Source: a virus
Lineage: Duplodnaviria > Caudoviricetes
Virus record (IMG/VR): IMGVR_UViG_3300005611_000043
Span: 1-51,070 of that record
Direction: 5' to 3' (one strand)
DNA: 51,070 nucleotides
Shown here in pieces: positions 4,140 to 43,425 of this stretch (within the stretch, counting starts at the first letter, position 1; each line of letters starts with the position of its first letter). Under the pieces are notes generated by a model. It made no database searches. It was not told where the DNA came from and was given only the letters and a program-made list of their open reading frames with translations. A program made the position numbers and the translations under genes.

Positions 4140-4892
4140 ATGTTTGAAAAAATAATTGAGTTTAGTGCGCCAGAAGTTTATTATAATTTAAAACAAAATC
4201 ATCCAACTCCAATTAAAATAAACATACCAGAGTGGTATAAAAAACTAGAACACAAAATTAATTACAGAACAGTTAAAGGATGTATGCCTTTTTTAGATAC
4301 ATTGACCTTTGGTTATTGTTTATACCTTCCAGTAGATTTTAAAATAGAACACAACAAAACTGTTAAAGATGAACAAGGTAAGGATAGAAAAGATAGTTTT
4401 TCTGCCACTCCTGTTGTGGGAGGAGGAGCAGATCTTGGGATAAATATAAATTTTAATGGTAAACCACAAGTTCATTCCCCATTTCAATTAGAAGGATCTC
4501 CTTTAGTAGATAAAAATAAAAATTTACCTTTTTACAAAATATTAAATCCTTGGATAATTAAAACACCTCCAGGCTATTCTTGTTTATTTGTTCCACCACT
4601 AAATAATACAGATGACAGATTTAGCATTATTCCAGGTATTGTAGATACGGATACTTTTGATAGGGAAATTAATTTTCCAATAGTTCTTAATGGAGATAAA
4701 TATCCTAATTTAGATACAACAATAGTTAAAGGAACACCTTACGCACAAGTCATTCCATTTAAAAGAGATAACTGGAAAATGAATGTAACAAAATCTAAAA
4801 TTAAAAATAAAATTTTACATAATTTATTATATCCTTTAAGATTTGTACATAACTATAAATTAGATTTTTGGAGTAAAAAACAATGCAAGTAG
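4140..4892 (+). CDS. Conserved phage protein associated with 2OG-Fe(II) oxygenase clusters (DUF6065-like)
   Basis: TVKGCMPFLD, NPWIIKTPPGYSCLF, PGIVDTD, KGTPYAQVIPFKR motifs. Confidence 0.6.
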   Translation: MFEKIIEFSAPEVYYNLKQNHPTPIKINIPEWYKKLEHKINYRTVKGCMPFLDTLTFGYCLYLPVDFKIEHNKTVKDEQGKDRKDSFSATPVVGGGADLGININFNGKPQVHSPFQLEGSPLVDKNKNLPFYKILNPWIIKTPPGYSCLFVPPLNNTDDRFSIIPGIVDTDTFDREINFPIVLNGDKYPNLDTTIVKGTPYAQVIPFKRDNWKMNVTKSKIKNKILHNLLYPLRFVHNYKLDFWSKKQCK

Positions 4893-5464
4893 ATCCATAT
4901 GGAGTTGGACAATACGTTAAAGTAATTGATGGTATATTTCCAAAAAAAACATTAGAAAAATTTTATAAAATTTGCAAAGAATTAGATTTTAAAGACGCTT
5001 ACGTAGGTGGTGGTAAAAATTCAAAAGTAAATAAAGAAATTAGAAACACTGAAACTTTATGTTGGCATAGATACAGTAAAGAACTTACTCATGTTCGTTG
5101 GTGTAATTATTTTATAAATGCAACCTATGATGCTATAAAAAAATACTACATACCAGGAGCACCACAAGCAACAGTAAATAAAGCAAGTCAAATTGAAGTT
5201 TTAAAATATAAAGAGGGAGGTTTTTATACTCCTCACGTAGATCATTTTGCAACAATTCCAAGAACAATTAGTGTTGTAACTTTTATAAATGATGATTTTG
5301 ATGGTGGAGAATTTGAAATGTTTTCTCCCGATTTAAAAGAATCTAAAAAAGTAAAACCACAAGTAGGAAGAACTATTATATTTCCTTCAAATTTTTTATA
5401 TCCACATAAGGCAAATCTTGTAAAGAATGGTACGCGATATGCTATCGTAATATGGTTTTTATAA
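4883..5464 (+). CDS. 2OG-Fe(II) oxygenase (prolyl-4-hydroxylase-like)
   Basis: YTPHVD (HxD), DFDGGEF, IFPSNFLYPH, GTRYAIVIW. Confidence 0.9.
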   Translation: MQVDPYGVGQYVKVIDGIFPKKTLEKFYKICKELDFKDAYVGGGKNSKVNKEIRNTETLCWHRYSKELTHVRWCNYFINATYDAIKKYYIPGAPQATVNKASQIEVLKYKEGGFYTPHVDHFATIPRTISVVTFINDDFDGGEFEMFSPDLKESKKVKPQVGRTIIFPSNFLYPHKANLVKNGTRYAIVIWFL

Positions 5465-5465
5465 T

Positions 5466-6017
5466 ATGCAAATAAGAAAAGACTTTAAATACAAAATAAT
5501 TAAAAACTTTTTAACACAAGAAGAAACTAATCTATTGCGAGATTATACTATACTTAGAATTAGACATGATGATACTAATGATCAAAGCAACAAACCAGGT
5601 GTAGTAGATTTAAATTTTTACGGAGACCCTATTATGGAGTCTTTAATGATACAAAAGTTACCTTTAATGCAAAAAGAAACTGAATTGGAATTGTTACCAA
5701 CTTATACTTTTTGGAGGTGTTATACTAAATTTGCTGACCTTCCAAAACATAAAGATAGACCTTCTTGTGAAATAAGTACAACAGTTAATATTGGATCTGA
5801 TGGAACTTCATGGCCAATATACATGGATGGTACACCTATAGATTTAGCACCGGGAGATGCGGCAGTTTATTTAGGTTGTGAGGTTTTACATTGGAGAGAA
5901 GAATTTAAAGGTGATTGGTGTTCTCAAGTATTCATACATTACGTTGATAAAAATGGTCCTAATAGAGAATTCTTTAAAGATAAAAGAAGGCATTATGGCT
6001 TACAATCAATATGGTAG
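5466..6017 (+). CDS. 2OG-Fe(II) oxygenase-like protein
   Basis: LPKHKDRPSCEIS (HxD), GDAAVYLGCEVLHWRE, QVFIHYV. Confidence 0.85.
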   Translation: MQIRKDFKYKIIKNFLTQEETNLLRDYTILRIRHDDTNDQSNKPGVVDLNFYGDPIMESLMIQKLPLMQKETELELLPTYTFWRCYTKFADLPKHKDRPSCEISTTVNIGSDGTSWPIYMDGTPIDLAPGDAAVYLGCEVLHWREEFKGDWCSQVFIHYVDKNGPNREFFKDKRRHYGLQSIW

Positions 6018-9086: not shown

Positions 9087-10319
9087 ATGAGCCAAGGATG
9101 TAATAACGTAAATGTAGAACCAACTGTAATTGGTGGTGGAGATGGCTCTACTGCTTATGATGCATTTGGAAGATTAAGAGTTTCTAATCCACTTACTATA
9201 TTTGATTCTAAAAATGTCATGTCAAAGAATAATCTCTTTGATGAAGATTTAACAGGATCAGGAACCGTTACTTACACAGCTAATAAATCTACAGTTAATT
9301 TAAATGTGACCACAGCTAGTGGTGATAAAGTTATCAGGCAATCTAAAAGAGTAATGTCTTATCAACCAGGAAAGTCATTATTAATTTTTAATACTTTTGT
9401 TATGAATACACAGGAAGAAAATTTAGAACAACGTGTAGGCACGTTTGATGCAAATAACGGAATATTTTTTGAAGATTATGGAACAGGATATCGTTTTGTA
9501 AGAAGAACTTATACTTCAGGTTCACCAGCAGATACGGATGTTAATCAATCTTCCTGGAACGGAGATAAATTAGATGGTACAGGACCAAGTGGATATACGC
9601 TACTTCCAACTAAAGCAACTATTTTATTTACAGATTATGAATGGTTAGGAATGGGCGCAGTTAGATGTGGATTTGTTATTGATGGTAAATTTATTGTTGC
9701 TCATACTTTTTATAACGCCAATAATTTAGACACCGTTTATATGCAAACGGCAAACTTGCCCATACGATACGAAATAGAGACAACTGGTACTATTAGCGGA
9801 GCAGCTTCACTACAACAAGTTTGTTCTTCTGCTTTAATTGAAGGCGGTTATGCACCTCAAGGAATACAACAAATGATTGGCACAGCTTCACTAGGTGGAG
9901 TTAATTTAACTACAGCTGGAACTTTTTATAATTTAGCTACGATTAGTTTACAATCATCTAGACCTTATGCGGTTGTAGTATCTCAAGGTTTTGATGCATC
10001 TGCAGTATCTAACTCTGATTTTGAAGTACAGTTAAGACTCAATGCAACACCATCTACAGCATTTTCTTACACAACATATTCAGATAATGTTAAATATGAT
10101 TTAACAGGAACAACTACAATTACTGGAGGAACCATCATTGGTAAAGCTTATCTTTCAGGTAAAGCATCTAATTCTATTCAGTTTGGTGACGGATTTAATT
10201 TTGACTACCAATTAGGACAGACAATTGCTGGAGCTTCTGATACACTAACATTATGTGCTAAAGGAGCATCCAATGGTGACGATGTCATCGGTAATTTAAA
10301 ATGGGTTGATTTAACATAA
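9087..10319 (+). CDS. Putative virion structural protein
   Basis: DAFGRLRVSNPLTIFDS, YQPGKS, DYEWLGMGAVRCGF, LPIRYE motifs of a widespread phage family. Confidence 0.65.
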   Translation: MSQGCNNVNVEPTVIGGGDGSTAYDAFGRLRVSNPLTIFDSKNVMSKNNLFDEDLTGSGTVTYTANKSTVNLNVTTASGDKVIRQSKRVMSYQPGKSLLIFNTFVMNTQEENLEQRVGTFDANNGIFFEDYGTGYRFVRRTYTSGSPADTDVNQSSWNGDKLDGTGPSGYTLLPTKATILFTDYEWLGMGAVRCGFVIDGKFIVAHTFYNANNLDTVYMQTANLPIRYEIETTGTISGAASLQQVCSSALIEGGYAPQGIQQMIGTASLGGVNLTTAGTFYNLATISLQSSRPYAVVVSQGFDASAVSNSDFEVQLRLNATPSTAFSYTTYSDNVKYDLTGTTTITGGTIIGKAYLSGKASNSIQFGDGFNFDYQLGQTIAGASDTLTLCAKGASNGDDVIGNLKWVDLT

Positions 10320-24090: not shown

Positions 24091-24896
24091 TGTCAAAAGC
24101 GGTAGAAAAAAAGACAACGAGTTCAAGTGTAGCTAATGTAGATTTAAATGCATTACTAAAGAATTCGTTTGATAACATAGATGCTCAATCTGTATCTATG
24201 CCTTACTTCAAGATTGTTGCTAAACAATCTGATGTAATAGAACCTGGTTCAGCAAATTATATTGAATCAGCTAAACCTGGAATGATTCTAAACTCAGCAT
24301 TGAATCAAGTATTTCAATCTATTAGAGTTATTCCTTCTTACTTCTATGTTAAAGATTTAGAGTGGGCAGATAGAGAGTCTGGTACAAACAGACCTGTTGG
24401 ATCCTACGATATATCTGAAAACATCATTGCTAAAACGCATAAAGATGAAAGAGGTAAGGACCGATTAGAGAACGGTAATTATATTGAGAGAACTGCTCAT
24501 CATTTTGTAACTAGACTTGATGAGAATAACAATGTACTGGACAATGGGATTATCACAATGTCTAGAACTCAGTATAAGAAGTCGCAAAGATGGAATACCA
24601 TGCAACTTGCTCAGTATGAGGAGATTAATGGTAAGCGTCAGCAACTTCCTAATCACGCACAAATTTACACACTCAGCACAACGTTGGAGAAAAACAATCT
24701 CGGTACTTGGTACGGCTGGGTAGTAAACTACGCTGGGATGGCACCTGCGGAAGCAATTCAAAGATCTGTGGCGTTCAGAGAATCAGCTTCCAGAATGCAG
24801 AATGTCAGTGATGCTGGTGAGTCGGCAGAGGTTAAAACGGAAGCAGCTAGTGTAACAGCTAGTAGCTCGCAAGGTAAGGAAGAGACTCCGTTTTAA
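24090..24896 (+). CDS. Single-stranded DNA-binding protein (putative)
   Basis: Acidic C-terminal tail ending EETPF; location in replication operon. Confidence 0.65.
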   Translation: MSKAVEKKTTSSSVANVDLNALLKNSFDNIDAQSVSMPYFKIVAKQSDVIEPGSANYIESAKPGMILNSALNQVFQSIRVIPSYFYVKDLEWADRESGTNRPVGSYDISENIIAKTHKDERGKDRLENGNYIERTAHHFVTRLDENNNVLDNGIITMSRTQYKKSQRWNTMQLAQYEEINGKRQQLPNHAQIYTLSTTLEKNNLGTWYGWVVNYAGMAPAEAIQRSVAFRESASRMQNVSDAGESAEVKTEAASVTASSSQGKEETPF

Positions 24897-26437
24897 TGAA
24901 AGCTGCTGATTTTCTAGATCTGTTTGATTGTCAAAGGGAAAACTATTACGTCTTTTCTCACAATGGTGAGAGAGAACGTGATGGTAAGGCGGAAGGACGA
25001 TACAGACGGATTAACGAAACAGTTACCGAAGAAGTAATTGCAAAACACCTCGGCGGAGAAATCAGCATTGGTCTTATCCCTACTCGTAGGGATAAGACTT
25101 GTTCTTGGGGTTGTATTGATGTCGATAATATCATTTACGGCAAAGATCCAACCCCAGTTATTAAAAAGATTAGAGAAAAAAAATATCCATTGATGCCATA
25201 CCGTTCCAAAACGGGTGGCTTACATTTAGTATTACATATTCAAGGTTCTGTACTAGCTGCAGACATGAGAGCAAAAATTAATGAACTTGCATCTGATTTA
25301 GGTTTTGGTGGCGAGGGTGCAGATAAATTTCCAGCAGAGGACGAAATTAAATGGGATCCACAAAAAAATGAATGGCGTACAGGTAAATGTTTAAACATTC
25401 CTTATTTCAATTCCGATACAACTACACGTTATGCATTAAACAATGCAGGACAAGCTTTAGACTTTGAAGACTATGTAGAATTTGTAAAACAATTTAGAGT
25501 TACTCCAGAACAGTTTAAAAAGATTGAGATCGCGAAGCCCAGTAATACAGATGAAGAGTGGGATCAATACCCTCCTTGTGTTCAAGGTTTTATTAAAGAG
25601 GGTGTGGGTGAGGGAAATAGAAATAATGCTTTATTTAACATGGCTGTGTTAGCTCATCTTAAAAACCCAAAAAATCTAAGACAAGAAGTATACAAGAGAA
25701 ACGAAACTGTTTGCAAGCCACCTATTCAAAACGATTCAGAACTAGAAGAGATTATCAATGGTATTAAAGAACAAAGTTATTTTTATATGTGCAATACACC
25801 TATTGCTAAAAAGTTTTGTAATAAGGAATTATGTAGACAACGTAAGTTTGGTATAGGACCCGAACAGTACCAACCTAGTGTAGAGTTGTTTGAAAAATTG
25901 GATACAGATCCACCTATCTATTACTTAACGATTGAAGGTAAACAAGTAACGATTACAGGCCAACAACTTACTCAACAGCAATTATTTGGTACAGCATTGT
26001 TTGATCAAGCAGATATGGTTTGGGATGCAATTAAACCAAAAGATTTTAAAATATTTTTACGTAAACTAAAAGACATGCAAAAGGTAATTGAAGACACACA
26101 AGATTCTAAAGCACATGAGTTTGAATATTATGTTAGAAAGTTTTTTCAAGACGAAGAACCTGGAGATGATATTTCACAAATTGAAGCTGGTTATATTTTT
26201 CTTGAAGAGGATTGGATTTATTTTAAATTAGAAACCTTTATGGATTTCATGGTTAAAAACCGTCAAAACAAAAAGCGTAACGAAATGATTCATTACTTGA
26301 GAACAGGTGGTGCACAGAATGTTAAAAAGAATAATACGCGGATGTGGAGGGTGAAGAAACCATCAACCATTCAAATTAAAGATCGTAAAGTAGATTTTAA
26401 AAAACATACCGCGACTGATGACAACATACCGTTTTAA
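24896..26437 (+). CDS. Primase (AEP-like with PriCT-type domain)
   Basis: WGCIDVD, RSKTGGLH, PPCV, GEGNRNNALF. Confidence 0.8.
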   Translation: MKAADFLDLFDCQRENYYVFSHNGERERDGKAEGRYRRINETVTEEVIAKHLGGEISIGLIPTRRDKTCSWGCIDVDNIIYGKDPTPVIKKIREKKYPLMPYRSKTGGLHLVLHIQGSVLAADMRAKINELASDLGFGGEGADKFPAEDEIKWDPQKNEWRTGKCLNIPYFNSDTTTRYALNNAGQALDFEDYVEFVKQFRVTPEQFKKIEIAKPSNTDEEWDQYPPCVQGFIKEGVGEGNRNNALFNMAVLAHLKNPKNLRQEVYKRNETVCKPPIQNDSELEEIINGIKEQSYFYMCNTPIAKKFCNKELCRQRKFGIGPEQYQPSVELFEKLDTDPPIYYLTIEGKQVTITGQQLTQQQLFGTALFDQADMVWDAIKPKDFKIFLRKLKDMQKVIEDTQDSKAHEFEYYVRKFFQDEEPGDDISQIEAGYIFLEEDWIYFKLETFMDFMVKNRQNKKRNEMIHYLRTGGAQNVKKNNTRMWRVKKPSTIQIKDRKVDFKKHTATDDNIPF

Positions 26438-28662: not shown

Positions 28663-29343
28663 GTGATTAACAAAGTAAATTGTTTCGGTAACGATATTTA
28701 TCTACCTGCTTGTGATGATTTCATTCAATCATCTATTAAAAATACAGGCGGTTGGGAAAAGAAAATACATGAATGTTATTCTTCGTTTCTTACAAAAGAT
28801 TCAGTAGTAATAGAAATAGGAGCTCATGTTGGAACTCATACGGTGGCTATGGCAAAACTATGTAAGCATGTCTATACCTTTGAAATACAAAGATTTTTAA
28901 ACCAATTATTAAATTTTAATGTAATTAATAATGGTTGTTATAACGTGACAACTTTTTTTGAGGGGATTCATAATTACAACGCTGTAAAACAAGTAGAAGA
29001 ACTTGACTACACCAGGGTGTTTAACACAGGAGCTCTTACTATTGAGTCTTTGCATAAACCATGGGGTTATCCAATCATGGTTACAAAAATAGATACAAAG
29101 TTTAATTATAGGTTTTTAAATAGATTAGATTTACTTAAGATTGATGCAGAGGGTGTAGAAAGAGATATTATTAAAGGTGGATTACAAACCATACGAAATT
29201 TCAAACCAAGAATATTAGTAGAGTTTGATGGTGAGCCCGATAAAAACGAAATGAAACAAATGCTTCCAGAATATCAATGGGAGGATGTCATAGATCATTA
29301 TTTAGACATTCCAAATAACATGATGTTAGGAACTGCAACATGA
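28663..29343 (+). CDS. FkbM-family methyltransferase
   Basis: EIGAHVGTHT, FE, LKIDAEG. Confidence 0.88.
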   Translation: MINKVNCFGNDIYLPACDDFIQSSIKNTGGWEKKIHECYSSFLTKDSVVIEIGAHVGTHTVAMAKLCKHVYTFEIQRFLNQLLNFNVINNGCYNVTTFFEGIHNYNAVKQVEELDYTRVFNTGALTIESLHKPWGYPIMVTKIDTKFNYRFLNRLDLLKIDAEGVERDIIKGGLQTIRNFKPRILVEFDGEPDKNEMKQMLPEYQWEDVIDHYLDIPNNMMLGTAT

Positions 29344-30020
29344 TGAAACCAACAGAGTTTAAATTTGACTTTTATGGGAAACTAAAACATTTTGGTGTTC
29401 AATTTGAAAACATCGTTGATGTTGGTTGTTTTCAAGGAGATTGGACAGAACGTGTTCAGAAAGTTTATCCAGATGCTAATTATTATTTAATAGATCCTAA
29501 CGATCACCATAAAGATAAATGTGAAAAGCTTGGAACTTTTATACAAGCTGCTGTTGGATATAAGGAAGAAGAAAGAAAATTTTATTATTACGAAGAACAT
29601 TCTGCTACAGGTAATTCTTTGTATAAAGAAACATCTAACGCAGTACCTTATGAAAAGGTTGTTACAGCAAAACCGTTGTCTGCCTTATTACCTGATCAAA
29701 AGTACGATGTAATTAAAATGGATGTCCAGGGTGCAGAGTTAGAAATTATAGATGGGTCCTTTGATTTATTTAGTAAAACTAAATTTGTCCAATTAGAGTG
29801 TCCTGTACATCATAACAATGTGGATGCACCAAGATTTGAACATTACATTAATTTTATGGCTAATTGTGATTTTAAAGTATTTGACATTGATAATATATTT
29901 TATAATAAAAAGTTAATAGGAGTTGATTTTATTTTTGTTAATAAAAAATTACCAAAAATCACACCGCTAGAAAACGAAAAAATAATTTACGAAAGCTACG
30001 CCAATGTCCCATCAACTTAA
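29340..30020 (+). CDS. FkbM-family methyltransferase
   Basis: DVGCFQG, IKMDVQGAELEII. Confidence 0.88.
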   Translation: MMKPTEFKFDFYGKLKHFGVQFENIVDVGCFQGDWTERVQKVYPDANYYLIDPNDHHKDKCEKLGTFIQAAVGYKEEERKFYYYEEHSATGNSLYKETSNAVPYEKVVTAKPLSALLPDQKYDVIKMDVQGAELEIIDGSFDLFSKTKFVQLECPVHHNNVDAPRFEHYINFMANCDFKVFDIDNIFYNKKLIGVDFIFVNKKLPKITPLENEKIIYESYANVPST

Positions 30021-34417: not shown

Positions 34418-34478
34418 GCGGGTGCACAATTGGGTGGCCCACTAATCTTGCTTAACAATAACTAAGGAGGTTTATATG
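34418..34478 (+). promoter_or_regulatory. ROSE-like RNA thermometer in hsp20 5' UTR
   Basis: UCUUGCUUA (34446-34454) pairs with SD UAAGGAGG (34463-34470) with a bulged G; an upstream hairpin is also present. Confidence 0.7.
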
Positions 34479-34898
34479 ACAGGTTTAGATATAATTAACA
34501 AAATCCAAAAAGACATGTGGAACAAATCCAATGCATTGTTTGGTGATTCGTTTGACGAAATGTTCATGAATCTATCCAAAGTGCAATCATTCCCTTTTTA
34601 CAACGTAGTCAAATACGGTAAAGGAGAATACGGAATTGAACTAGGTCTTGCTGGTTTCAATAAGAAAAACATCAAAGTGGAGTACAAAGACGGTGTATTA
34701 ACGGTTGCGGGTCAAGTTGATGACCAGGAGAAGGAATACATTGAAAAAGGCTTAGCTGCGAGAAAATTTTTTAAACAATTTTCACTACGCAACGATGTTT
34801 TGGTAGACGAAGCGAAAATGGAAGATGGTGTATTAACGATTAAATTAGGCGTTAATGAACCAGAAGACATAAAAGCTCAAGAAATCAAAGTAAAATAA
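34476..34898 (+). CDS. hsp20: Small heat-shock protein Hsp20 (IbpA-like)
   Basis: FPFYNV, LAGF, DGVLTV, KGLAARKF, MEDGVLTI. Confidence 0.93.
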   Translation: MTGLDIINKIQKDMWNKSNALFGDSFDEMFMNLSKVQSFPFYNVVKYGKGEYGIELGLAGFNKKNIKVEYKDGVLTVAGQVDDQEKEYIEKGLAARKFFKQFSLRNDVLVDEAKMEDGVLTIKLGVNEPEDIKAQEIKVK

Positions 34899-35505: not shown

Positions 35506-35563
35506 CGTATCTACTAAGATATATTTACCTAAAAGTATATTTTCAAAAAAATATCTTAAAACA

Positions 35564-35653
35564 AGTGTACTAGTGTACTTTTGATCTATTATTGTTATAT
35601 ACCAACGATTATAGCTGTACACTAGTAGTGTACTAGTAGTGTACCTAGTGTAC
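35564..35653. repeat. AGTGTAC iteron-like repeat cluster
   Basis: Direct copies at 35564, 35572, 35627, 35638, 35647; inverted copy at 35617. Confidence 0.8.
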
Positions 35654-35758
35654 CATATTGGCATATGTTCTTACTGACCAGACTACCTAAATCTGGTAAA
35701 GTATGTTACTTACTTAAAAATATCTTATTAGGTTGCGAAAATTCAAAAAGGAGATGAA

Positions 35759-35896: not shown

Positions 35897-36138
35897 TTCC
35901 ATTAGGTAAATTACTTGTTAAAAGACTTGTTAAATTAAGTTTTAATAAAGTTGTTCCTGGAGCAAGTAAGGAAGCAACGAAACGTGCTGTAAAAACAAAT
36001 TTAACTAATCTTGCAAATAGATACGAAGCCAAAGCGTCTAAAGCTTATCTTGAAAATAAACCTAAACGAGATACTGCTATGTTACAGATGGCAGACAAAA
36101 TTACGAAAGACATAAAAACTTTATTTGGAAAAAAATAA
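35887..36138 (+). CDS. Hypothetical basic protein
   Basis: ATG overlaps the upstream gene end; TAATG coupling to terS. Confidence 0.6.
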   Translation: MSVVPLGKLLVKRLVKLSFNKVVPGASKEATKRAVKTNLTNLANRYEAKASKAYLENKPKRDTAMLQMADKITKDIKTLFGKK

Positions 36139-36656
36139 TGACATATCTTCTAAAAGGTAGGACCAAACAACGTGAGTTAAAATCATTTTCTGATTTAACT
36201 CCGAAAGAAAAAAAGTTTGCCGAACTTTATGTTGAACATTGGGGCCAGATGAAGAAACAAGATATTGCTGTTCTTGCTGGATATCCCGAAACGTCAGCTG
36301 GTAATAGAGCTTCAAGACTAACTAACGCAGATCGTTCACCTCATGTAGTTAAGTACATAGAATTTTTATACAACAAAGAAAAAAGAAAATACAAAGACGA
36401 TTTACATCATTTTAAAAATTATGACCGTTTAATTAAAGGTGCAGAGAGCAAAGGACAGTTTGCTGCTGCTATCAATGCTGAATATCACAAAGGTCAAGCT
36501 GCAGGTTTTTATGAAAAAAATATTAATATAAAAACAACAAACCTGGAGGGCATGACTCGTGATGAACTTGAGAAAAGGCTTGGGGAGCTTGAAAAGAAAA
36601 TCTCCACCAACCAACCCATCATCGAAGCTACAGTCATTGAGACAAAGAGCTCTTAA
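36138..36656 (+). CDS. terS: Terminase small subunit
   Basis: LTPKEKKFAELYV...AVLAGY...ASRL...PHVVKYI helix-turn-helix, AAINAE..GQAAGFY. Confidence 0.8.
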   Translation: MTYLLKGRTKQRELKSFSDLTPKEKKFAELYVEHWGQMKKQDIAVLAGYPETSAGNRASRLTNADRSPHVVKYIEFLYNKEKRKYKDDLHHFKNYDRLIKGAESKGQFAAAINAEYHKGQAAGFYEKNINIKTTNLEGMTRDELEKRLGELEKKISTNQPIIEATVIETKSS

Positions 36657-36748: not shown

Positions 36749-37207
36749 ATGAAAAAGATTAAAGTTGGATATTCAGATGTCAGAATTGAGTACGTTAGTG
36801 AATCCGATGATTCGAAATGGTGCAAAGAACATCATGGTGAATTTATTTCAGAATTCAGTTTAATTAAAATTGCAAAAAAACAACGTCCAAGTGAAGAGCT
36901 TAACACGTTAATGCATGAAGTTTTGCATGCTTTAGTCTACATTTATGGTCTAAACAATGATGCGGGACCCTTGAAAAAAACCCAAGTTGAAGAACAAGTT
37001 GTTGCTGTTATGGCCAGTGGCTTGCAACAAATTATTCGTGACAATCCATCCTTCTTGGCATATATTTCGAAGCAGATAGGAGCCGATAAAATTGCCAATC
37101 AAACCAGAGAGAAAACTGTACTTGGACTTAAGAAAGTCGCTAGAAAAACACAGGAAAAACGTACACATCGTAAGGATAGAAAACCTCGTAGGTCAGGGCG
37201 TTCCTGA
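36749..37207 (+). CDS. HEXXH zinc metallopeptidase-like protein
   Basis: TLMHEVLHA...EEQVV. Confidence 0.7.
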   Translation: MKKIKVGYSDVRIEYVSESDDSKWCKEHHGEFISEFSLIKIAKKQRPSEELNTLMHEVLHALVYIYGLNNDAGPLKKTQVEEQVVAVMASGLQQIIRDNPSFLAYISKQIGADKIANQTREKTVLGLKKVARKTQEKRTHRKDRKPRRSGRS

Positions 37208-37565
37208 TACTCACATCACCTATTTTGGTACATCTTTTTGGCTCGAACTTAAAGTTTCTGATGCCAAAAAACCACCGCTTTCGAAGTACCAAATCGCTTG
37301 GCATATGCAGCATGCAGACGCTGGAGGACACAGTTGGATCTTGCAAACAACACAGAAGCACCAACGTATGAAACTTTACGTAGGTTCTGGGGTGCGCAAT
37401 ATTCCCGCTTGGGTTCCCGTTATGGAACTTCCCGTTCCCGCTTCCCGTTCCCACCAGGGAAAGAGGCCTTCCCGTTCCCGTTCTGGAAAGTCGGTCTTCG
37501 AGGAGCTGTTCGATTTCATTAGGGAGCGACAGAACAAATATTTGATTCCGCATAACGCTGATTAA
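37092..37565 (+). CDS. Holliday junction resolvase / VRR-NUC-like nuclease
   Basis: RIEN..GQGVPD, FWLELKV, LSKYQIAWH; C-terminus overlaps the TTCCCG repeats. Confidence 0.8.
   Translation: MPIKPERKLYLDLRKSLEKHRKNVHIVRIENLVGQGVPDTHITYFGTSFWLELKVSDAKKPPLSKYQIAWHMQHADAGGHSWILQTTQKHQRMKLYVGSGVRNIPAWVPVMELPVPASRSHQGKRPSRSRSGKSVFEELFDFIRERQNKYLIPHNAD
37402..37480 (+). repeat. TTCCCG repeat element copy 1
   Basis: 7 TTCCCG plus 1 TTCCCA in ~80 bp. Confidence 0.9.
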
Positions 37566-37589
37566 ATTTTTTTTATTTTTTTTTCTATT

Positions 37590-37623
37590 TCGCCTTTTTG
37601 TTGCCACAATTTTTTCCTAAAAG
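37590..37623 (+). promoter_or_regulatory. Cassette promoter 1 (direct-repeat box plus -10)
   Basis: TCGCCTT-TTTG-TTGCCAC-N10-TAAAAG, with an upstream AT tract. Confidence 0.65.
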
Positions 37624-37657
37624 GTAATTACAAATTAACAACAAAGAAGGAGTAACA

Positions 37658-37903
37658 ATGATTGATGATAAACAAAGACTGGAAAGTTATAGAGCAGCAT
37701 TGGTTGAAGCGATTGTAACAATTGATCGTAAGACTTATGGAAAGTGGAACAAGGATTGGTCCAGACTAAGAAGGATTGTTGATTTGGTCCTTAATCATGA
37801 CCGACCTATTGAACGAGCTATCTATGTTGCTGAGGAAGAAGTGAAAGAGCACCAAGCATGGTTTGATAAAGTTAAACAATTTGAAAACAAGGAGGCAGTG
37901 TAG
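37658..37903 (+). CDS. Hypothetical early-cassette protein
   Basis: SD AAGGAG; 81 aa. Confidence 0.75.
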   Translation: MIDDKQRLESYRAALVEAIVTIDRKTYGKWNKDWSRLRRIVDLVLNHDRPIERAIYVAEEEVKEHQAWFDKVKQFENKEAV

Positions 37904-37961
37904 TTCCCGCTTCGGGTTTCCCGCGGACTTCCCGCGGGACTTCCCGTTGTTACTTCCCGTT
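37904..37961 (+). repeat. TTCCCG repeat element copy 2
   Basis: Five TTCCCG starting at the base after the stop codon; hairpin TCCCGCGG-ACTTC-CCGCGGGA. Confidence 0.9.
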
Positions 37962-37964
37962 ATT

Positions 37965-38105
37965 ATGAATAAGAAAAAATTAAAAAAAATTTATAAAGAT
38001 TATCAAAAATATTATGCAACAACTATGGGTTGGAAAATGAAAGAGACTTTTAAGGAATGGTTACAAAGATTAAAAGATATAAACAGTCCTTTAATCTTGC
38101 CTTAA
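37965..38105 (+). CDS. Small hypothetical protein (46 aa)
   Basis: MNKKKLKKIYKDYQKYY...TFKEWL; no SD visible. Confidence 0.45.
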   Translation: MNKKKLKKIYKDYQKYYATTMGWKMKETFKEWLQRLKDINSPLILP

Positions 38106-38130
38106 TGTTGCCATAATTTGTTGTTACTTG
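38097..38130 (+). promoter_or_regulatory. Cassette promoter 2
   Basis: TTGCCTT-AATG-TTGCCAT-N10-TACTTG with TGn extension. Confidence 0.7.
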
Positions 38131-38158
38131 TTGGCTTTAACAAAAGGAGTAAAATAAA

Positions 38159-38350
38159 ATGGAAAATAAACCAACACACTTTGCTGTAAACGATATTACT
38201 TTTTACGGCATGGACGAAAATAACGACATAGTAGTAGATGAGAACGGAGAAGAAGTAACTTATCAATTTAAAGAAGGGGTAAGATACAAACCATTAGAAT
38301 ATTTTTGCGAAGGTATAGAAAAAGATATTTTAGAGGAGGTAAAAAAATGA
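38159..38350 (+). CDS. Hypothetical acidic early-cassette protein
   Basis: SD AAAAGGAG; 63 aa. Confidence 0.75.
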   Translation: MENKPTHFAVNDITFYGMDENNDIVVDENGEEVTYQFKEGVRYKPLEYFCEGIEKDILEEVKK

Positions 38351-38685
38351 ACCACGAAGAAAAAATATTTGCAAAGCATCTTCCTGACTTTGTAAGTAAA
38401 AAAATTGAATTAAAGGAAGCGTCTAAACAATTCAAAGAAGCGTTAGATAAAATCGCAAAAGAGTTTGGGCATGATCCGAAGTGGGAGACGTTTTTAACTG
38501 ATTACAAAAAATATGGCGGTAACTTCGAGGGCGATATGGTTTGCTATGAAGCGTGCCCTATTTATGATTGGGGCGTTGCCTATTCTTTAGGCGCATATCC
38601 TAAAAGTTACAACTGGCAAAAAAACCCGCAAGACTGGTATTTAGAATGTCATTATGGGTTTGATGTAATATTTACAAAACAATAA
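38347..38685 (+). CDS. Hypothetical early-cassette protein
   Basis: SD GAGGAGG, ATGA overlap; YEACPIYDWG...WYLECHYGFDVIF. Confidence 0.75.
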   Translation: MNHEEKIFAKHLPDFVSKKIELKEASKQFKEALDKIAKEFGHDPKWETFLTDYKKYGGNFEGDMVCYEACPIYDWGVAYSLGAYPKSYNWQKNPQDWYLECHYGFDVIFTKQ

Positions 38686-38728
38686 TTCCCGCTATAGCCC
38701 TCGCGAATTCCCGCGAGGGCTTCCCGTT
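38686..38728 (+). repeat. TTCCCG repeat element copy 3
   Basis: Three TTCCCG directly after the stop; hairpin AGCCCTCGCG-AATTCC-CGCGAGGGCT. Confidence 0.9.
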
Positions 38729-38822
38729 CATGTTATTTAAAATATTTATTATTCTTCTAGTGTTAAGTGCCTTACTGGTTGCGGGTTACTTTGATGATTA
38801 TTAATTTAAAAAAAAATTATTA

Positions 38823-38856
38823 TTGCCTTAATTTGAACACAATATTTTTTTATACA
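38823..38856 (+). promoter_or_regulatory. Cassette promoter 3
   Basis: TTGCCTT-AATT-TGAACAC-N10-TATACA. Confidence 0.7.
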
Positions 38857-38879
38857 TAGAAAAAAACAAAGGAGTAAAA

Positions 38880-39059
38880 ATGAAAAAATATCTAGTTATG
38901 GTTTCTGACCACGTTGCTAGGCAAGTTGTTGTTGAAGCAAAGACCGAAAAGGAAGCTCTTGAAAAAGCTGACTACGGTGACTGGCTATTGCCTGAAGACG
39001 TTGAGCATGAAGAGGTGGTAGGACGTATGGCCATAGAAATTTTAGAGGAAAGGGGGTAA
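38880..39059 (+). CDS. 59-aa protein, DpnD/PcfM-like pattern (not in ORF track)
   Basis: SD AAAGGAG; MKKYLVMV...VVVEAKTEKEALEKA. Confidence 0.8.
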   Translation: MKKYLVMVSDHVARQVVVEAKTEKEALEKADYGDWLLPEDVEHEEVVGRMAIEILEERG

Positions 39060-39064
39060 AAAAC

Positions 39065-39472
39065 ATGGGCTTAGATATGTACATGTACAGCACCAATAAA
39101 CACATTGAAAGTTTAGAGGTGGAAAATAGAGCAAAGGTAGATGGCGAAGAGGAGCAAGAGCAAGAGCTCGGCTACTGGCGAAAGCATAATCGCTTGCATG
39201 GTTGGTTTGAGAATAAGTGGCTCAACCGCCATACTGACGCTGATACTGACTTTAATTGTGTTCGGTATTATCTGAACGCGGAAGAGTTAGAGGAACTTTG
39301 CGACACTATCAAAAAAGAAAAGTTGCCAGCTACGAGTGGCTTCTTTTTTGGTAATGATAGCTACTCGTATGAAGAGCACGAGGAACAAAAAAAATACGAC
39401 CTTGAGATTATAGAAAAGGCAAAAAAAGAGCTCGAGGCAGGTAAGTACGTTTATTACTCTAGTTGGTGGTAA
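39065..39472 (+). CDS. Conserved phage protein (MGLDMY family)
   Basis: MGLDMY, YWRKHNRLHGWF, LPATSGFFFG, YYSSWW. Confidence 0.85.
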   Translation: MGLDMYMYSTNKHIESLEVENRAKVDGEEEQEQELGYWRKHNRLHGWFENKWLNRHTDADTDFNCVRYYLNAEELEELCDTIKKEKLPATSGFFFGNDSYSYEEHEEQKKYDLEIIEKAKKELEAGKYVYYSSWW

Positions 39473-39474
39473 TA

Positions 39475-39529
39475 TTCCCGTATGGGTTTCCCACGCTTCC
39501 CGCGTGGGTTTCCCGTTGGTTTTCCCGTT
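39475..39529 (+). repeat. TTCCCG repeat element copy 4
   Basis: Five TTCCCR; hairpin CCCACGC-TTCCC-GCGTGGG. Confidence 0.9.
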
Positions 39530-39625
39530 AGGTTTTTTTAATTTTTTTATTTATATTTATTATTTATTTAATTTTTTTAAGGGTCCTTTTTTTTATTTTA
39601 AAAAAAAAATAAATTATTTTTATGA

Positions 39626-39659
39626 TTGCCTTAATTTAGCCACATTGATGTGAAATAAC
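39626..39659 (+). promoter_or_regulatory. Cassette promoter 4
   Basis: TTGCCTT-AATT-TAGCCAC-N10-AATAAC with TGn, preceded by a ~95-bp AT tract. Confidence 0.7.
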
Positions 39660-39664
39660 TTCAT

Positions 39665-39766
39665 TGTTATTTCTTTTTGGGAATAGACGCAGAGTTCGTC
39701 TCAATGCATTTAGAAATAACATACACGGTTAGGGCATGACCAAGGGGATTTTCCCAAACTATGCCC
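39665..39766 (+). ncRNA. Candidate structured 5' leader
   Basis: Two stem-loops with 8-nt complementary loop segments. Confidence 0.45.
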
Positions 39767-39794
39767 ACAAACAAAAAACAAAAAGGAGTAAAAT

Positions 39795-40400
39795 ATGAAA
39801 CCAATAAGAAAAAATGAACTTGAGTACTATGAAAGACTGATAGACCGAAAGTTCGAAAAACAAGGGGACGCGCTTAATCGCGAGTTCAATAATGAGGTGG
39901 ACAAAAAAGTTGAACAAACTTTTAAGTCTTTTAAAAAACATCTCAAAGTTGAGGACATGTTTAAAAAAGTTGAAAGGGCGCGATCTGAATATGAGATTTT
40001 TAAAAGAACTAAAGATCAAAAAGAATCAGAGTTGCGCGATAAGTTAGAGACGCACGCTAACACACTGGCAAACTATCTACGCGAAAAATCCGATGTTAAT
40101 AACTGGGATTTAAGAATGAGCGCAGGATATGACAGAGACGGTGTTTTATCGTCAAATGAATTTGACAATAAAATAAAAGAAGCGTGCAGGGTTGAAGCTA
40201 GACGTTATCTTGAAAAACAAGATATTGCTAAAAATATGAAAGCGTTAGAAACTAGAAAAGAAATGGCGCGAAATATTTTGTTTAGCGGTAGTTCTATCAA
40301 CTCGGTTGTATCTGAATTAGCTAATGTGTTTAAATCTAGTCAGATTGACTTCCAAATCCCTAAATCTTTATTGCAATTAGAAGCACCTAAAGATCAGTAA
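39795..40400 (+). CDS. Helical/coiled-coil hypothetical protein
   Basis: SD AAAAGGAG; 201 aa, charged. Confidence 0.8.
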   Translation: MKPIRKNELEYYERLIDRKFEKQGDALNREFNNEVDKKVEQTFKSFKKHLKVEDMFKKVERARSEYEIFKRTKDQKESELRDKLETHANTLANYLREKSDVNNWDLRMSAGYDRDGVLSSNEFDNKIKEACRVEARRYLEKQDIAKNMKALETRKEMARNILFSGSSINSVVSELANVFKSSQIDFQIPKSLLQLEAPKDQ

Positions 40401-40415
40401 AAATAAAACTAAATT

Positions 40416-40443
40416 CCCACTTGCATTTTGCAAGTGGGGGTTT
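40416..40443 (+). terminator. Intrinsic terminator-like hairpin
   Basis: CCCACTTGCA-TTT-TGCAAGTGGG flanked by A- and T-rich runs. Confidence 0.65.
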
Positions 40444-40513
40444 ATATTAAGTTCAGGATATTTATATGGGTAAGCACGTCAAGTTCAATTTTAGCTCCTG
40501 TTTCTTGGGGTGC

Positions 40514-40560
40514 TTCCCGCCATATTCCCATTTTAGCTTCCCATTTTACTTTCCCATTTT
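40514..40560 (+). repeat. Degenerate TTCCCR repeat copy 5
   Basis: TTCCCG plus three TTCCCATTTT, followed by an AT tract. Confidence 0.8.
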
Positions 40561-40677
40561 ATTAATTATTTTATGTTTTATATAATATTAGTTATTTTTT
40601 TTGTGGTCCTGGTAGGGGCAATTGTGCGGCCGTGGGCTGGGCTGCTGCTGCTAATATCTTTTTATTTATTTTATTCG

Positions 40678-40711
40678 ATGACATAATTTGGACACAATTG
40701 TATGAAATAAA
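40678..40711 (+). promoter_or_regulatory. Cassette promoter 5
   Basis: ATGACAT-AATT-TGGACAC-N10-AATAAA with TGn. Confidence 0.6.
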
Positions 40712-40738: not shown

Positions 40739-40999
40739 ATGTTAAAATGTACAGAATGCAAATCAACTAATTTGGAATACCTTCCTAATGTTGATGGCAA
40801 CAGCTGGGTTAAAGTTCATTACGAACAAACGAAGAAGGGGCAGTGGAAGATTGTTGCCAAAGGTTATCGTAGTGCTAGCGACTCACAAGGGGAAGTGGAT
40901 GTGTCTACGATTGATGCCAGGGACATTTACTTCAATGATGGAATGTCATTCTTTTATTGTAAAGATTGCACATGCGAATTAGATGGGAGGCATCTGTAA
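40739..40999 (+). CDS. Zinc-ribbon protein
   Basis: SD AAAGGAG; CTEC...CKDC. Confidence 0.75.
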   Translation: MLKCTECKSTNLEYLPNVDGNSWVKVHYEQTKKGQWKIVAKGYRSASDSQGEVDVSTIDARDIYFNDGMSFFYCKDCTCELDGRHL

Positions 41000-41370
41000 T
41001 GAGAATAATGAAAGTTAAAAAAATAAAAGTGACAGCTGATGATATCAGTCACGGAACAACTTCTGACTGCCTTTCTTGCCCGATCGCTTTGGCGATCCGA
41101 AGGGTTGTGAAGAAGACCTGCAGGGTTGAGGTAAGAAGTTTATCTGTGTTGATCCAGGTGGATGACAAACTTACGCGTCCTCATGATTATATAGATGATG
41201 AGATAGTACCTGAAAACGGTGTCTTCCCTGTGATCCGCCTCTCATTACCACAGAGAGCAAGGGACTTCATTGATAGGTTTGATAGCATTGGAAGTCCTGC
41301 TGAAGAATACTTTAGCATAGTCAAACCATTCTCATTTGAGTTACCAATACCTGTCGAGTCACTTCGATAG
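40999..41370 (+). CDS. Hypothetical phage protein
   Basis: SD GGGAGG, TAATG overlap; VTADDI..G...CPIALAI...FIDRFD...KPFSFEL. Confidence 0.75.
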   Translation: MRIMKVKKIKVTADDISHGTTSDCLSCPIALAIRRVVKKTCRVEVRSLSVLIQVDDKLTRPHDYIDDEIVPENGVFPVIRLSLPQRARDFIDRFDSIGSPAEEYFSIVKPFSFELPIPVESLR

Positions 41371-41404
41371 CATCTAAGAATTAAGGCAGAAAAATATTTT
41401 TTTT

Positions 41405-41438
41405 CTGCCTTAATTTCGCCATAATTATGTGCGATAAA
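41405..41438 (+). promoter_or_regulatory. Cassette promoter 6 (leaderless)
   Basis: CTGCCTT-AATT-TCGCCAT-N10-GATAAA with TGn; ATG 5 nt downstream. Confidence 0.7.
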
Positions 41439-41443
41439 AAATC

Positions 41444-41827
41444 ATGAAAAAAATAAAAATGAAAACAGAAGAATTCAATAACTACAAGATGAACGATGAA
41501 GTGTACCAACTTAGAAGAAGAGTTATTGAATTAATTTATGAGGTGAAGAAAACAATCAAAGACTTACCAAGAATAGATGTTAGAGTTGGTGAGTCTGTAA
41601 ATTGTAAGAACATGCTTGGGTTAGCAGAGGTTGGTAACTGTAAGATTTGGATTACAGAAAAGGCAATCAACAAAGGTACAGACTACCTAAGACATGTAGT
41701 GTACCATGAGATTGCTCATGCAGTGTATGGTGCAAGACATAATCCTGAATGTCCATTGATGTCACCAAAGCTAACTCAACCAGCTGATTACGATACACTC
41801 ATCAAGTGCCTGGCCTCCTACCGATAG
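41444..41827 (+). CDS. Zinc metalloprotease-like protein (HEXXH)
   Basis: VVYHEIAHAVYGARH...CPLM (metzincin-like Met-turn). Confidence 0.75.
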   Translation: MKKIKMKTEEFNNYKMNDEVYQLRRRVIELIYEVKKTIKDLPRIDVRVGESVNCKNMLGLAEVGNCKIWITEKAINKGTDYLRHVVYHEIAHAVYGARHNPECPLMSPKLTQPADYDTLIKCLASYR

Positions 41828-41931
41828 GGGTCCAGGCCATCCCACCGTCACAGCTTCCGCTTCAGTACCCCGACCCCCCATTTGTGTTGATATGTTACTA
41901 AAAACAATGTAAAGAAAAGTAGGTCGGATAC

Positions 41932-43425
41932 ATGCAAACAGGTTCAAAAACTTTAGATCAGCTTTCTACCGATGAATTGAAAGAACAGGTAGAGTTAAAA
42001 TGGTTACAGTATATCAAGCTGTGCCAGGATAATTTTTTAATGTTTGTTCAAGAAGTTTGGCCTAGTTTTATTTGTCGTAAAGAAAAGGACCCATTGAAAT
42101 GGGGACACCACCAGATCATTGGTAATCAATTTCAGAAAATTGCAGATGGGTCCCAAAAGAGACTCATTGTGAATATGCCCCCTAGGCATACTAAATCAGA
42201 GTTTGCATCTTATTTGTTCCCTGCTTGGTTAATTGGAAAAAAACCTAATTTAAAAATTATGCAGGTATCGCACAATACAGAACTTGCAGTTCGTTTCGGA
42301 TCCAAAGTAAGAAACTTAATGGAGACTCCTGAATACAAACAAATTTTTGGTGATGTCAAACTTAGAGAAGATTCAAAAGCAAAAGGTCGTTGGGAAACAG
42401 ATCAAGGCGGTGAATATTATGCTGCTGGTGTGGGAGCTTCGATTACAGGTCGTGGTGCTGATTTATTAATTATTGATGATCCACATACTGAACAAGATAC
42501 AATGTCCGAGAATGCTTTTGATAAAGCTTACGAATGGTATACCTCTGGTCCACGTCAACGTCTTCAACCAGGAGGCTCCATTGTTTTAGTAATGACCAGG
42601 TGGGGTCAGGCAGACCTAACAGGCAAACTCATAGCAAATCAATCTGAACCTAAGTCAGACCAATGGTATGTAATAAAATTTCCAGCGATCATGCCTAATG
42701 GTAATCCAGTGTGGCCAGAGTATTGGACACTAGAAGATTTAGAAAAAACAAAAGCTTCTATTGCAGCAAGAAACTGGAATGCACAGTATATGCAGGAACC
42801 TTCCTCAGAAGAGGGAGCTATTATCAAGAGGGAGTGGTGGAAACCCTGGGATACAAAAAAAGGAGTCCCAAATTTGCTACACGTCATACAAAGTTATGAT
42901 ACTGCATTTTCCACAAAAGAGACTGCGGACTTTTCTGCTATTACTACGTGGGGAATTTTTGAACCACAAGACGGAATGGGTCAAAGAATTATTTTATTAG
43001 ATGCTGTACAGGAACGATGGGAATTTCCAGATTTAAAACAAGCAGCATTAGAACAGTATCGATATTGGGAACCCGAATCTGTAATCATTGAAGCAAAAGC
43101 TTCGGGGCAACCATTATTGCAAGAATTCCGACGTATGGGTATTCCAGCGATGGATTTCATACCTGCAAAAGGAAGAGATAAAGTTACAAGGGTAAATGCA
43201 GTTTCACCACTATTTGCATCAGGTATGGTTTATTATCCTAAGGGAGAAAGATTTGCAGAAGAAGTCATAGAACAATCCGCAGCTTTTCCTTATGGCGAAC
43301 ATGATGATTTAGTAGATAGTATGACTCAAGCTTTGTTTAGGTACAGACAAGGCGGATTTATTATGACACCAGAAGATTACAAAGAAGAGCCACATATATC
43401 TGCAGAAAAGAAGTTCTACGATTGA
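41932..43425 (+). CDS. terL: Terminase large subunit
   Basis: NMPPRHTKSE, GRGADLLIIDDP, MTRW, SYDTA, IEAKASG, HDDLVDS. Confidence 0.95.
   Translation: MQTGSKTLDQLSTDELKEQVELKWLQYIKLCQDNFLMFVQEVWPSFICRKEKDPLKWGHHQIIGNQFQKIADGSQKRLIVNMPPRHTKSEFASYLFPAWLIGKKPNLKIMQVSHNTELAVRFGSKVRNLMETPEYKQIFGDVKLREDSKAKGRWETDQGGEYYAAGVGASITGRGADLLIIDDPHTEQDTMSENAFDKAYEWYTSGPRQRLQPGGSIVLVMTRWGQADLTGKLIANQSEPKSDQWYVIKFPAIMPNGNPVWPEYWTLEDLEKTKASIAARNWNAQYMQEPSSEEGAIIKREWWKPWDTKKGVPNLLHVIQSYDTAFSTKETADFSAITTWGIFEPQDGMGQRIILLDAVQERWEFPDLKQAALEQYRYWEPESVIIEAKASGQPLLQEFRRMGIPAMDFIPAKGRDKVTRVNAVSPLFASGMVYYPKGERFAEEVIEQSAAFPYGEHDDLVDSMTQALFRYRQGGFIMTPEDYKEEPHISAEKKFYD

Follow-up and report, generated by a model that had tools for sequence, protein, structure and literature searches.

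Short repeated words close to a genome end are known from phage T7, in which CCTAAAG-type words (checked on the T7 sequence) lie at positions 175, 188, 201, 213, 226 and 239 on one strand of the left end, with a period of 12-13 bp, between the 160-bp terminal repeat and the promoters A1-A3. These T7 short-repeat arrays are reportedly named SRL and SRR (by Dunn and Studier, in 1983), and their function is unexplained. In T5 and SPO1 long direct terminal repeats carry the earliest genes. According to the available text of PMC13595956, the way in which the terminal repeats of T3, T7 and T5 are generated is still unresolved. A different kind of repeat organization is provided by the PeSL cassettes of T4-type phages, promoter-leader modules that flank small unknown genes in a variable region and that are gained and lost without an integrase, through crossovers between homologous promoter, AT-rich or Shine-Dalgarno stretches (PMC2839356, PMC4122927; accessible parts). 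Here we describe a locus that combines traits of these systems in a 51,070-nucleotide stretch of viral DNA (positions 1 to 51,070 of the virus record IMGVR_UViG_3300005611_000043, estimated completeness about 84%; hereafter the window), in which arrays of the word TTCCC(G/A), or TTCCCR, extend from the end of a VRR-NUC-like nuclease gene towards TerL. With modest confidence we infer that these arrays mark the left boundary and the interior of a direct terminal repeat of about 4.5 kb and are read by a phage packaging protein, the ends as well as the binding being part of that inference. An earlier note, made from the sequence alone, had presented the arrays as a conserved hairpin element acting as a shuffling site, a polar or terminase-loading signal, or an RNA processing or termination signal; of these options the polar-signal/terminase one is the best supported, while the headline of shuffling sites is mostly unsupported.

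Between 37201 and 41900 the word TTCCCR occurs 27 times on the + strand and once on the - strand, whereas 200 dinucleotide-shuffled versions gave 1.7 on average and never more than 6, and the five clusters reported earlier lie at their described positions, every one on the + strand. The genome-wide count of TTCCCG that had been proposed as a check gave 20 vs 0 in this region, as opposed to 1 vs 2 in the remaining window; over the whole window TTCCCR shows a mild excess (50 vs 38 expected). Likewise, three clusters begin directly past a stop codon, namely clusters 2, 3 and 4 at 0, 0 and 2 nt. The claim of a single hairpin of about 55 bp conserved across all five clusters failed, however, since significant folds were obtained for cluster 2 (z-score -2.9), cluster 3 (-5.9) and cluster 4 (-3.8) but not for clusters 1 (-0.6) and 5 (-1.3), and the first word of cluster 5 is the 3' arm of a separate stem-loop (40466-40520). 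Single array copies with differing stem sequences each fold, and formal covariation tests on MAFFT alignments gave no clear signal, the stems being out of register. Cluster 1 is coding, as it lies in the C-terminal tail of the VRR-NUC gene, and its copy number shifts in frame between strains. The words follow a 6-7-bp lattice in cluster 1 and a spacing of 12-13 bp in the dispersed clusters, where this spacing accounts for 54 of the 81 word intervals in the dispersed arrays of the close clade (10 close loci). Because the densest array (cluster 1) and most arrays of relatives are stemless, the conserved unit is the short word rather than the hairpin. The earlier note overlooked small open reading frames (ORFs) that lack a Shine-Dalgarno sequence and bridge the distance between arrays 2, 3 and 5 and the promoter box that follows each of them. 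Rfam gave no credible match across 35-42 kb. The hairpin form as a widespread mobile element was ruled out by two pattern scans of viral contigs, one yielding a single, unrelated match and the other, with 119 loci, one relative only (the contig of L008; L-numbers denote loci of relatives, with L002 being HTVC023P and L003 HTVC027P, and X-numbers denote sequencing runs with near-identical contigs).

The array region coincides with raised contig depth in six of six runs from five studies, with median inside/outside ratios for 37.3-41.9 kb of 1.58 (X1), 1.74 (X2), 1.82 (X10), 1.46 (X6), 1.35 (X4) and 1.24 (X7) and baseline depth in the queried DNA on both sides; the values were copied by hand from near-identical, hand-picked contigs, with 1-5 inside contigs per run. 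In X2 the depth went from 58.6 (41007-41580) down to 33.4 (41906-42474). Furthermore, the gap between VRR-NUC and TerL, measured from the VRR-NUC start + 290 to TerL, falls into two classes among 77 distinct relatives, 256-410 bp (17 relatives, short-gap) and 2326-4701 bp (60 relatives, long-gap). This two-class distribution mirrors the terminal-repeat lengths of marine phages of the same size: in 35 nanopore marine-virus genomes (53.5-64 kb, 33-38.5% GC, a size and GC window chosen to fit the HTVC023P-type family) the repeats measured 209-372 bp (12 genomes) or 2214-4042 bp (23 genomes), with no length between the classes and with 21 of the 23 long ones flagged as fixed, i.e. not permuted (PMC7111524; Table S1, rows 1-187 of 1,864, counted by eye). 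In addition, gp35 and gp38 of HTVC027P, which lie in the gap, are classed as early genes, gp32 as a middle gene and the two terminase genes, TerS and TerL, as late ones (PMC12753301, available text). The VRR-TerL gap is thus likely to be the terminal repeat, reaching from the VRR-NUC end to just before TerL, and its cargo genes would be early genes present twice in the virion.

Judged by its TerL, which is 69% identical to TerL of HTVC023P and 60% to that of HTVC027P, and by a gene set closest to these two phages, the window phage is HTVC023P-type pelagiphage-like, a relative of the most common SAR11 phages of the ocean. It encodes PolA, an AEP primase, two helicases, GroES and podovirus structural genes, and neither an RNA polymerase nor an integrase or recombinase was found among the 62 ORFs scanned in this record of about 84% completeness. 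The host is probably SAR11, because TerL relatives (58-59% identity) sit in two Pelagibacteraceae assemblies; HTVC023P and HTVC027P have HTCC1062 as a common host. No solved structure was matched by the TerL sequence. Across the relatives an array was called when the 500 nt from the VRR-NUC 3' end held at least 6 YCYCR on the + strand and at least twice the reverse count, near-duplicates being removed. On this basis the VRR-NUC 3' end carries an array in 37 of 45 distinct long-gap relatives and in 20 of 23 without TerL in the locus, with a mean YCYCR count in those 500 nt of 11.7 (+) vs 3.2 (-), compared with 1.1 vs 1.6 upstream. In 28 long-gap loci (redundant), YYCGT on the + strand reached 7.3 per kb within the gap, against 0.9 per kb outside it. 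The word density peaks at the VRR-NUC end and declines towards TerL, and the word itself varies by lineage (TCCCG, TCCCA, TCTCG, CCTCG, CTCGG, GCTTG, TCGGG). Tolerant ORFs of L031, L015 and L071 contain it as Leu-Val codons, including the L031 homolog of the 59-aa ORF (the first ORF in 38880-39472), in which the word lies within the coding sequence; most such arrays are stemless. In HTVC027P the GCTTG arrays (L003 8507-8628, 9397-9436, 9720-9734) are on the + strand while gp32-34 are on the - strand, and likewise in L370 the GCTTG arrays lie on the VRR-to-TerL strand and the flanking genes on the opposite one, so that array polarity in the GCTTG lineage tracks the VRR-to-TerL axis and not the neighbouring genes. 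HTVC023P and HTVC027P have different repeats at this spot despite their common host. Five loci of one clade show near-balanced strand counts.

Similar to the T7 end arrays, the arrays of the window consist of short degenerate words on one strand with a 12-13-bp period and lie between packaging genes and early promoters for the host polymerase. They differ from those of T7 in starting inside the VRR-NUC gene and in forming five clusters over 3.2 kb among cargo genes, in being partly hairpins and lineage-variable, in a predicted repeat of about 4.5 kb (160 bp in T7), and in that no phage RNA polymerase was found among the ORFs scanned. With T5 and SPO1 the locus would share the location of the earliest genes within a multi-kb terminal repeat; here, however, the repeat is deduced from sequence and depth, and its length appears to alternate among relatives between about 0.3 kb and 2-4.7 kb. 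We regard this as a real, family-wide feature that would work like T7 end arrays laid over a PeSL-like variable region. The gap would hold the early cassettes as a direct terminal repeat whose left boundary is fixed by the arrays: the terminase would assemble on the arrays to cut the left end, or, alternatively, the arrays would act as a rising stop signal for a motor coming from the right. Dispersed copies of the word are placed where coding tolerates them, after stops and in small tolerant ORFs, and three of these arrays double as 3' hairpins of the upstream transcript. That the reader is phage-encoded is suggested by the difference between two phages sharing a host and by the lack of enrichment of the words in DNA of SAR11 relatives. 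TerS is the most plausible candidate reader, although the word varies little across divergent TerS helices and the trees do not discriminate. More tentatively, and with considerably less assurance, the terminal repeat might be elastic: most lineages would have stretched it from about 0.3 kb to 2-4.7 kb, capturing the entire swappable set of early genes, and seeded it with a one-strand gradient of a lineage-specific word, placed in intergenic gaps, hairpin loops and tolerant ORFs, that guides terminase or primase to duplicate and cut the repeat. If so, the natural occurrence of relatives with short and with long repeats would open the mechanism of long terminal repeats to direct test. The main reading, of the gap as the terminal repeat, would also mean that the variable early genes are delivered in two copies and that read-recruitment depth over the array region is inflated. 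Concrete binding and end-mapping tests are offered by a family-wide polar word that varies by lineage and sits at a predictable locus, by HTVC027P as a cultured member, and by the natural short- and long-gap variants. The feature was not found in print within the literature searched; in the accessible parts of PMC9599517, bioRxiv 2019.12.14.876532, PMC10504331 and PMC12753301, which name HTVC023P, neither these repeats nor the termini are described.

Several observations weigh against a terminal repeat marked by these arrays. Depth is one figure per assembled contig, a crude measure unsuited to ranking; two runs reach a ratio of only 1.2-1.35, X6 has no drop at 41.8 kb, and mini-circles, an origin, or a second population with the same cassettes could be the source of the raised depth. 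The nanopore genomes (AFVG) of PMC7111524 were matched by size and GC only, with no sequence link, and are not among the close TerL matches. A YCYCR array was present in none of 12 short-gap relatives, which have a compact ACCGTT/ACCATT run only; the + array is missing from HTVC023P, which holds an 18-bp repeat in three copies that resembles the word when read as its reverse complement, and in L315 the C-rich word lies on the opposite strand, which is the sense strand of the following genes. The assignment of GCTTG to the same element rests on position, one-strand bias and a 7-bp period. Finally, the word stays similar across very different TerS recognition helices, and the TerS and VRR trees required equal numbers of motif-class changes (12 vs 12; for the two main classes 2 vs 2). 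A comparison of the primase, with 4 records at 29-40% identity, was too thin to use.

The same arrays could act at the RNA level. In this case they would insulate transcripts as C-rich sites for Rho loading (rut), in part backed by a hairpin that stabilises the 3' end; each early transcript would stop there, and read-through from the TerS-VRR operon would be blocked. The YC-rich core on the sense strand, the 12-13-nt period and the length of 55-60 nt match a Rho primary site, 10 of 17 distinct dispersed clusters of the close clade start 0-3 nt past a stop codon, the stems accept G-U pairs, Rho is encoded in 12 of 13 SAR11 relatives, the C-rich strand of L315 faces its genes, and short-gap relatives lack arrays. 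However, in clusters 2-4 the strong stems bury the C residues, a conserved purine follows the C-run, and an ORF of at least 22 aa begins within 6 nt after 8 of the 17 distinct clusters (background 8.6%), in L215 one with two CxxC pairs. Moreover, the GCTTG arrays are antisense to their flanking genes and have no YC on the + strand, and two phages of one host differ, so that we consider Rho loading unlikely, although it is the strongest rival reading. An intrinsic terminator signature was not found at the arrays, as the stems of clusters 2-4 lead into more words and not into a U-tract, and no more than weak matches of 5 bp occur there, at 37934 and 39504; the scan found 4 sites where 3.6 were expected. 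Less credence still is given to priming sites for the AEP primase on the displaced + strand, used for copying of the terminal repeat or for origin start. Primases typically use pyrimidine-rich templates, yielding purine-started primers, and the pyrimidine-rich word fits this habit; the phage encodes an AEP primase and two helicases, and the words occur on one strand only, in clusters 0.5-1 kb apart and in hairpin loops. This idea is at odds with the lack of genome-wide strand enrichment of the word, with the depth change of X2 at 41.9 kb, which is a step and not a slope, and with GC skew, which shows no origin signal.

Dedicated recombination sites of the attC type, which would excise and reorder cassettes, are highly improbable. 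The region is a modular variable cassette region, as had been claimed, since gene content differs across relatives and runs: strain-level relatives (L007, L087, L207-L213) and contigs from six runs yielded 11 distinct gain, loss or replacement events. In three of the 11, one of the breakpoints touches or falls within an array (37963, array 3, 40529), but no event joins array to array, which does not bear out the proposed role of the arrays as shuffling sites. Also speaking against such a system are the absence of an integrase or recombinase among the scanned ORFs and the shared gene order, which is kept in L001, L087 and L209. A similarly slight chance is left for host Chi-like or KOPS-like words near a linear end that tame the AddAB nuclease or orient a translocase. 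Lambdoid phages have end-clustered Chi sites in one orientation, LLS and MD8 sharing with the window one-orientation words near a genome end, which in the window is a predicted one (PMC12315714, available text), and the word gradient is consistent with such signals. Chi, however, is a host word abundant in the host chromosome, whereas the window word is lineage-variable, differing between phages of one host, and unenriched in SAR11 DNA: in 400 kb of sequence from two SAR11 relatives the 16 words tested had z values between -2.1 and +1.2, none of them being over-represented, and showed no consistent skew, contrary to the Chi/KOPS option of the earlier note, although the true host may differ from these relatives. 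Since their defining features failed, the arrays were not filed as PeSL, attC, Chi or intrinsic terminator.

The left flank of the array region consists of TerS, an SprT-like ORF and the VRR-NUC-like nuclease, and the right flank of TerL (41932). The features are as follows.
24896-26437: AEP primase.
36138-36656, + strand: TerS (HTH), candidate reader of the arrays; PHROG 51 (E 1e-6), Pfam Terminase_2 (E 0.003, below cut-off).
37092-37565, + strand: VRR-NUC-like PD-(D/E)xK nuclease, probable Holliday-junction resolvase; 41% identity to HTVC023P gp25, invariant PD...ELK, weak match to PDB 4qbo nuclease (E 0.005); variable C-terminal tail spans cluster 1.
37402-37480, + strand: array 1, 8 TTCCCR mostly 6-7 bp apart, stemless; putative left terminal-repeat boundary (depth step).
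37584-37619, + strand: promoter-box repeat 1 (repeat families D1/D2), main crossover site of cassette swaps.
38091, 38817, 39620, 40670, 41399: further promoter-box copies; position alone suggests the promoter role.
37658-37903, + strand: 81-aa cargo ORF; some strains have lost it along with array 2; other cargo in L001, L214, L215.
37904-37959, + strand: array 2, 5 words 11-14 bp apart, central hairpin; 0 nt past stop.
37965-38105, + strand: uncalled 46-aa ORF without Shine-Dalgarno, occupying the stretch between array 2 and the following promoter box; in relatives its place is taken by other small ORFs.
38159-38685, + strand: two cargo ORFs, 63 and 112 aa; the first missing in L001 and L209.
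38686-38726, + strand: array 3, 3 words, hairpin; 0 nt past stop.
38730-38804, + strand: uncalled 24-aa hydrophobic ORF without Shine-Dalgarno; swapped in L208, L209, L211.
38880-39472, + strand: two cargo ORFs, 59 and 135 aa; the first deleted leader-to-leader in X7.
39475-39527, + strand: array 4, 5 words, hairpin, then T-tracts, no ORF; 2 nt past stop.
39795-40400, + strand: conserved 201-aa cargo gene; 25% to HTVC023P gp24.
40414-40440: ordinary terminator-like hairpin 3' of the 201-aa gene.
40466-40520, + strand: conserved stem-loop, loop AGCUCCUGUUU (anti-Shine-Dalgarno-like), candidate small RNA.
40514-40556, + strand: array 5, 4 words 11-13 bp apart, no hairpin.
40573-40686, + strand: uncalled 37-aa hydrophobic ORF; replaced in L209, X1, X2, X10, with the junction inside array 5.
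40739-41827, + strand: last three cargo ORFs, array-free; two extra genes at leader repeats in L007 and L209.
41828-41900, + strand: C-rich stretch before TerL, similar in many relatives; putative right terminal-repeat boundary.
41932-43425, + strand: TerL; PHROG 38 (E 6e-113).

For the 46-aa ORF no homolog but itself was found, and its position and swapped counterparts argue for coding, with the caveat that T-rich DNA can yield hydrophobic ORFs by chance. A trait of the family is that small hydrophobic ORFs, uncalled so far, extend as far as the next promoter (window 38730-38804 and 40573-40686; L001, L209, L216), and HTVC023P has two paralogous ones (L002 7924-8011 and 11001-11090).

The eight events without an array junction have their junctions at the promoter-box repeat, at the AACAAAGGAG leader or inside a leader. 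Cassette 1 was lost box-to-box with the joint 37574->38097 (L208, X1, X2, X4, X7); behind promoter boxes, ORF 38159 was replaced and one insertion occurred (L209, L208); ORF 38880 was lost leader-to-leader in X7; a leader deletion joined 39665 to 39724; two gene insertions lie at duplicated leaders (L007, L209); and the last cassette is missing in X6. In each of the three remaining events the small ORF that follows an array is exchanged; the left breakpoint falls at or within that array and the right breakpoint at a box. The order of the shared genes is unchanged. Turnover of the cassettes would reflect ordinary recombination over short homologies, as in PeSL regions, to which the arrays only sometimes contribute. 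As in PeSL regions, repeated promoter/leader modules bound the indels. The locus differs, however, in that its box does not follow the sigma-70 consensus and in that stem-loops lie 100-140 bp upstream with a small ORF between, and the accessible parts of PMC2839356 and PMC4122927 describe no one-strand word arrays tied to a genome end. A consensus sigma-70 promoter with an adjoining terminator stem-loop was not found at the boxes. The promoter box of the earlier note is a real repeat (D1) that lacks the sigma-70 consensus, with 18 promoter-like sites found vs 14.4 expected. It is composed of two GCC(T/A)(T/C)AAT-like halves with a spacing of about 12 bp. Within the repeat stretch 41379-41434 an inverted copy occupies 41379-41415, a second inverted copy occurs in L001, and short-gap relatives carry related TTGTGGCAA/TGTCGCAC words; instead of a promoter, the repeat may represent an operator. 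Leaders that are long, non-coding and apparently structured are inserted between promoter box and Shine-Dalgarno in the window (39650-39770), in L208 (1590-1690), L008 (320-410), L209 (6990-7250) and L215 (1120-1220), those of L208 and L008 having common arms and a differing middle; they are possibly swappable non-coding RNAs.

Stem-loops of about 60 nt akin to that at 40466-40520 were found in L008 (1305), L015 (5458), L031 (8614), L291 (7497) and others. Their stem sequences diverge widely among relatives yet keep pairing, while the loop AGCUCCUGUUU is invariant; the stem-loop has no Rfam match, and the loop word is complementary to the AAACAGGAG-type leaders of the phage and occurs in 46 of 93 long-gap loci (redundant). 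Judged from these sequence traits, the stem-loop is a candidate anti-Shine-Dalgarno small RNA. Upstream of TerS, the non-coding gap at 35560-35700 contains short palindromic and direct repeats (GTACACTAGT/GTGTAC type), and HTVC023P has a different repeat, CTAGGAAAA, in the same place (L002 6700-6780). HTVC023P also carries two sets of three 18-30-bp direct repeats, at L002 7470-7560 after TerS and 9930-10070 after VRR-NUC. In L366 a DNA-methyltransferase-like block, judged by eye from sequence, lies at about 1100-2150 between TerS and VRR-NUC. The short-gap relatives L030, L042, L043, L047, L052 and L061 keep their small genes in minus-strand cassettes, which lie between TerS and VRR-NUC, have ordinary hairpin terminators and are free of arrays; on TerS and VRR trees these relatives nest within the long-gap clade. 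The HTVC023P-type TerL contigs L367, L368, L371 and L372 occur in non-SAR11 metagenome-assembled genomes and are probably mis-binned. Elsewhere in the window, an Hsp20 gene (34476-34898) has near-identical copies in other organisms of the same runs and shows a depth peak, 2OG-Fe(II) oxygenases are encoded at 4883-6017, and two FkbM-like methyltransferases at 28663-30020.

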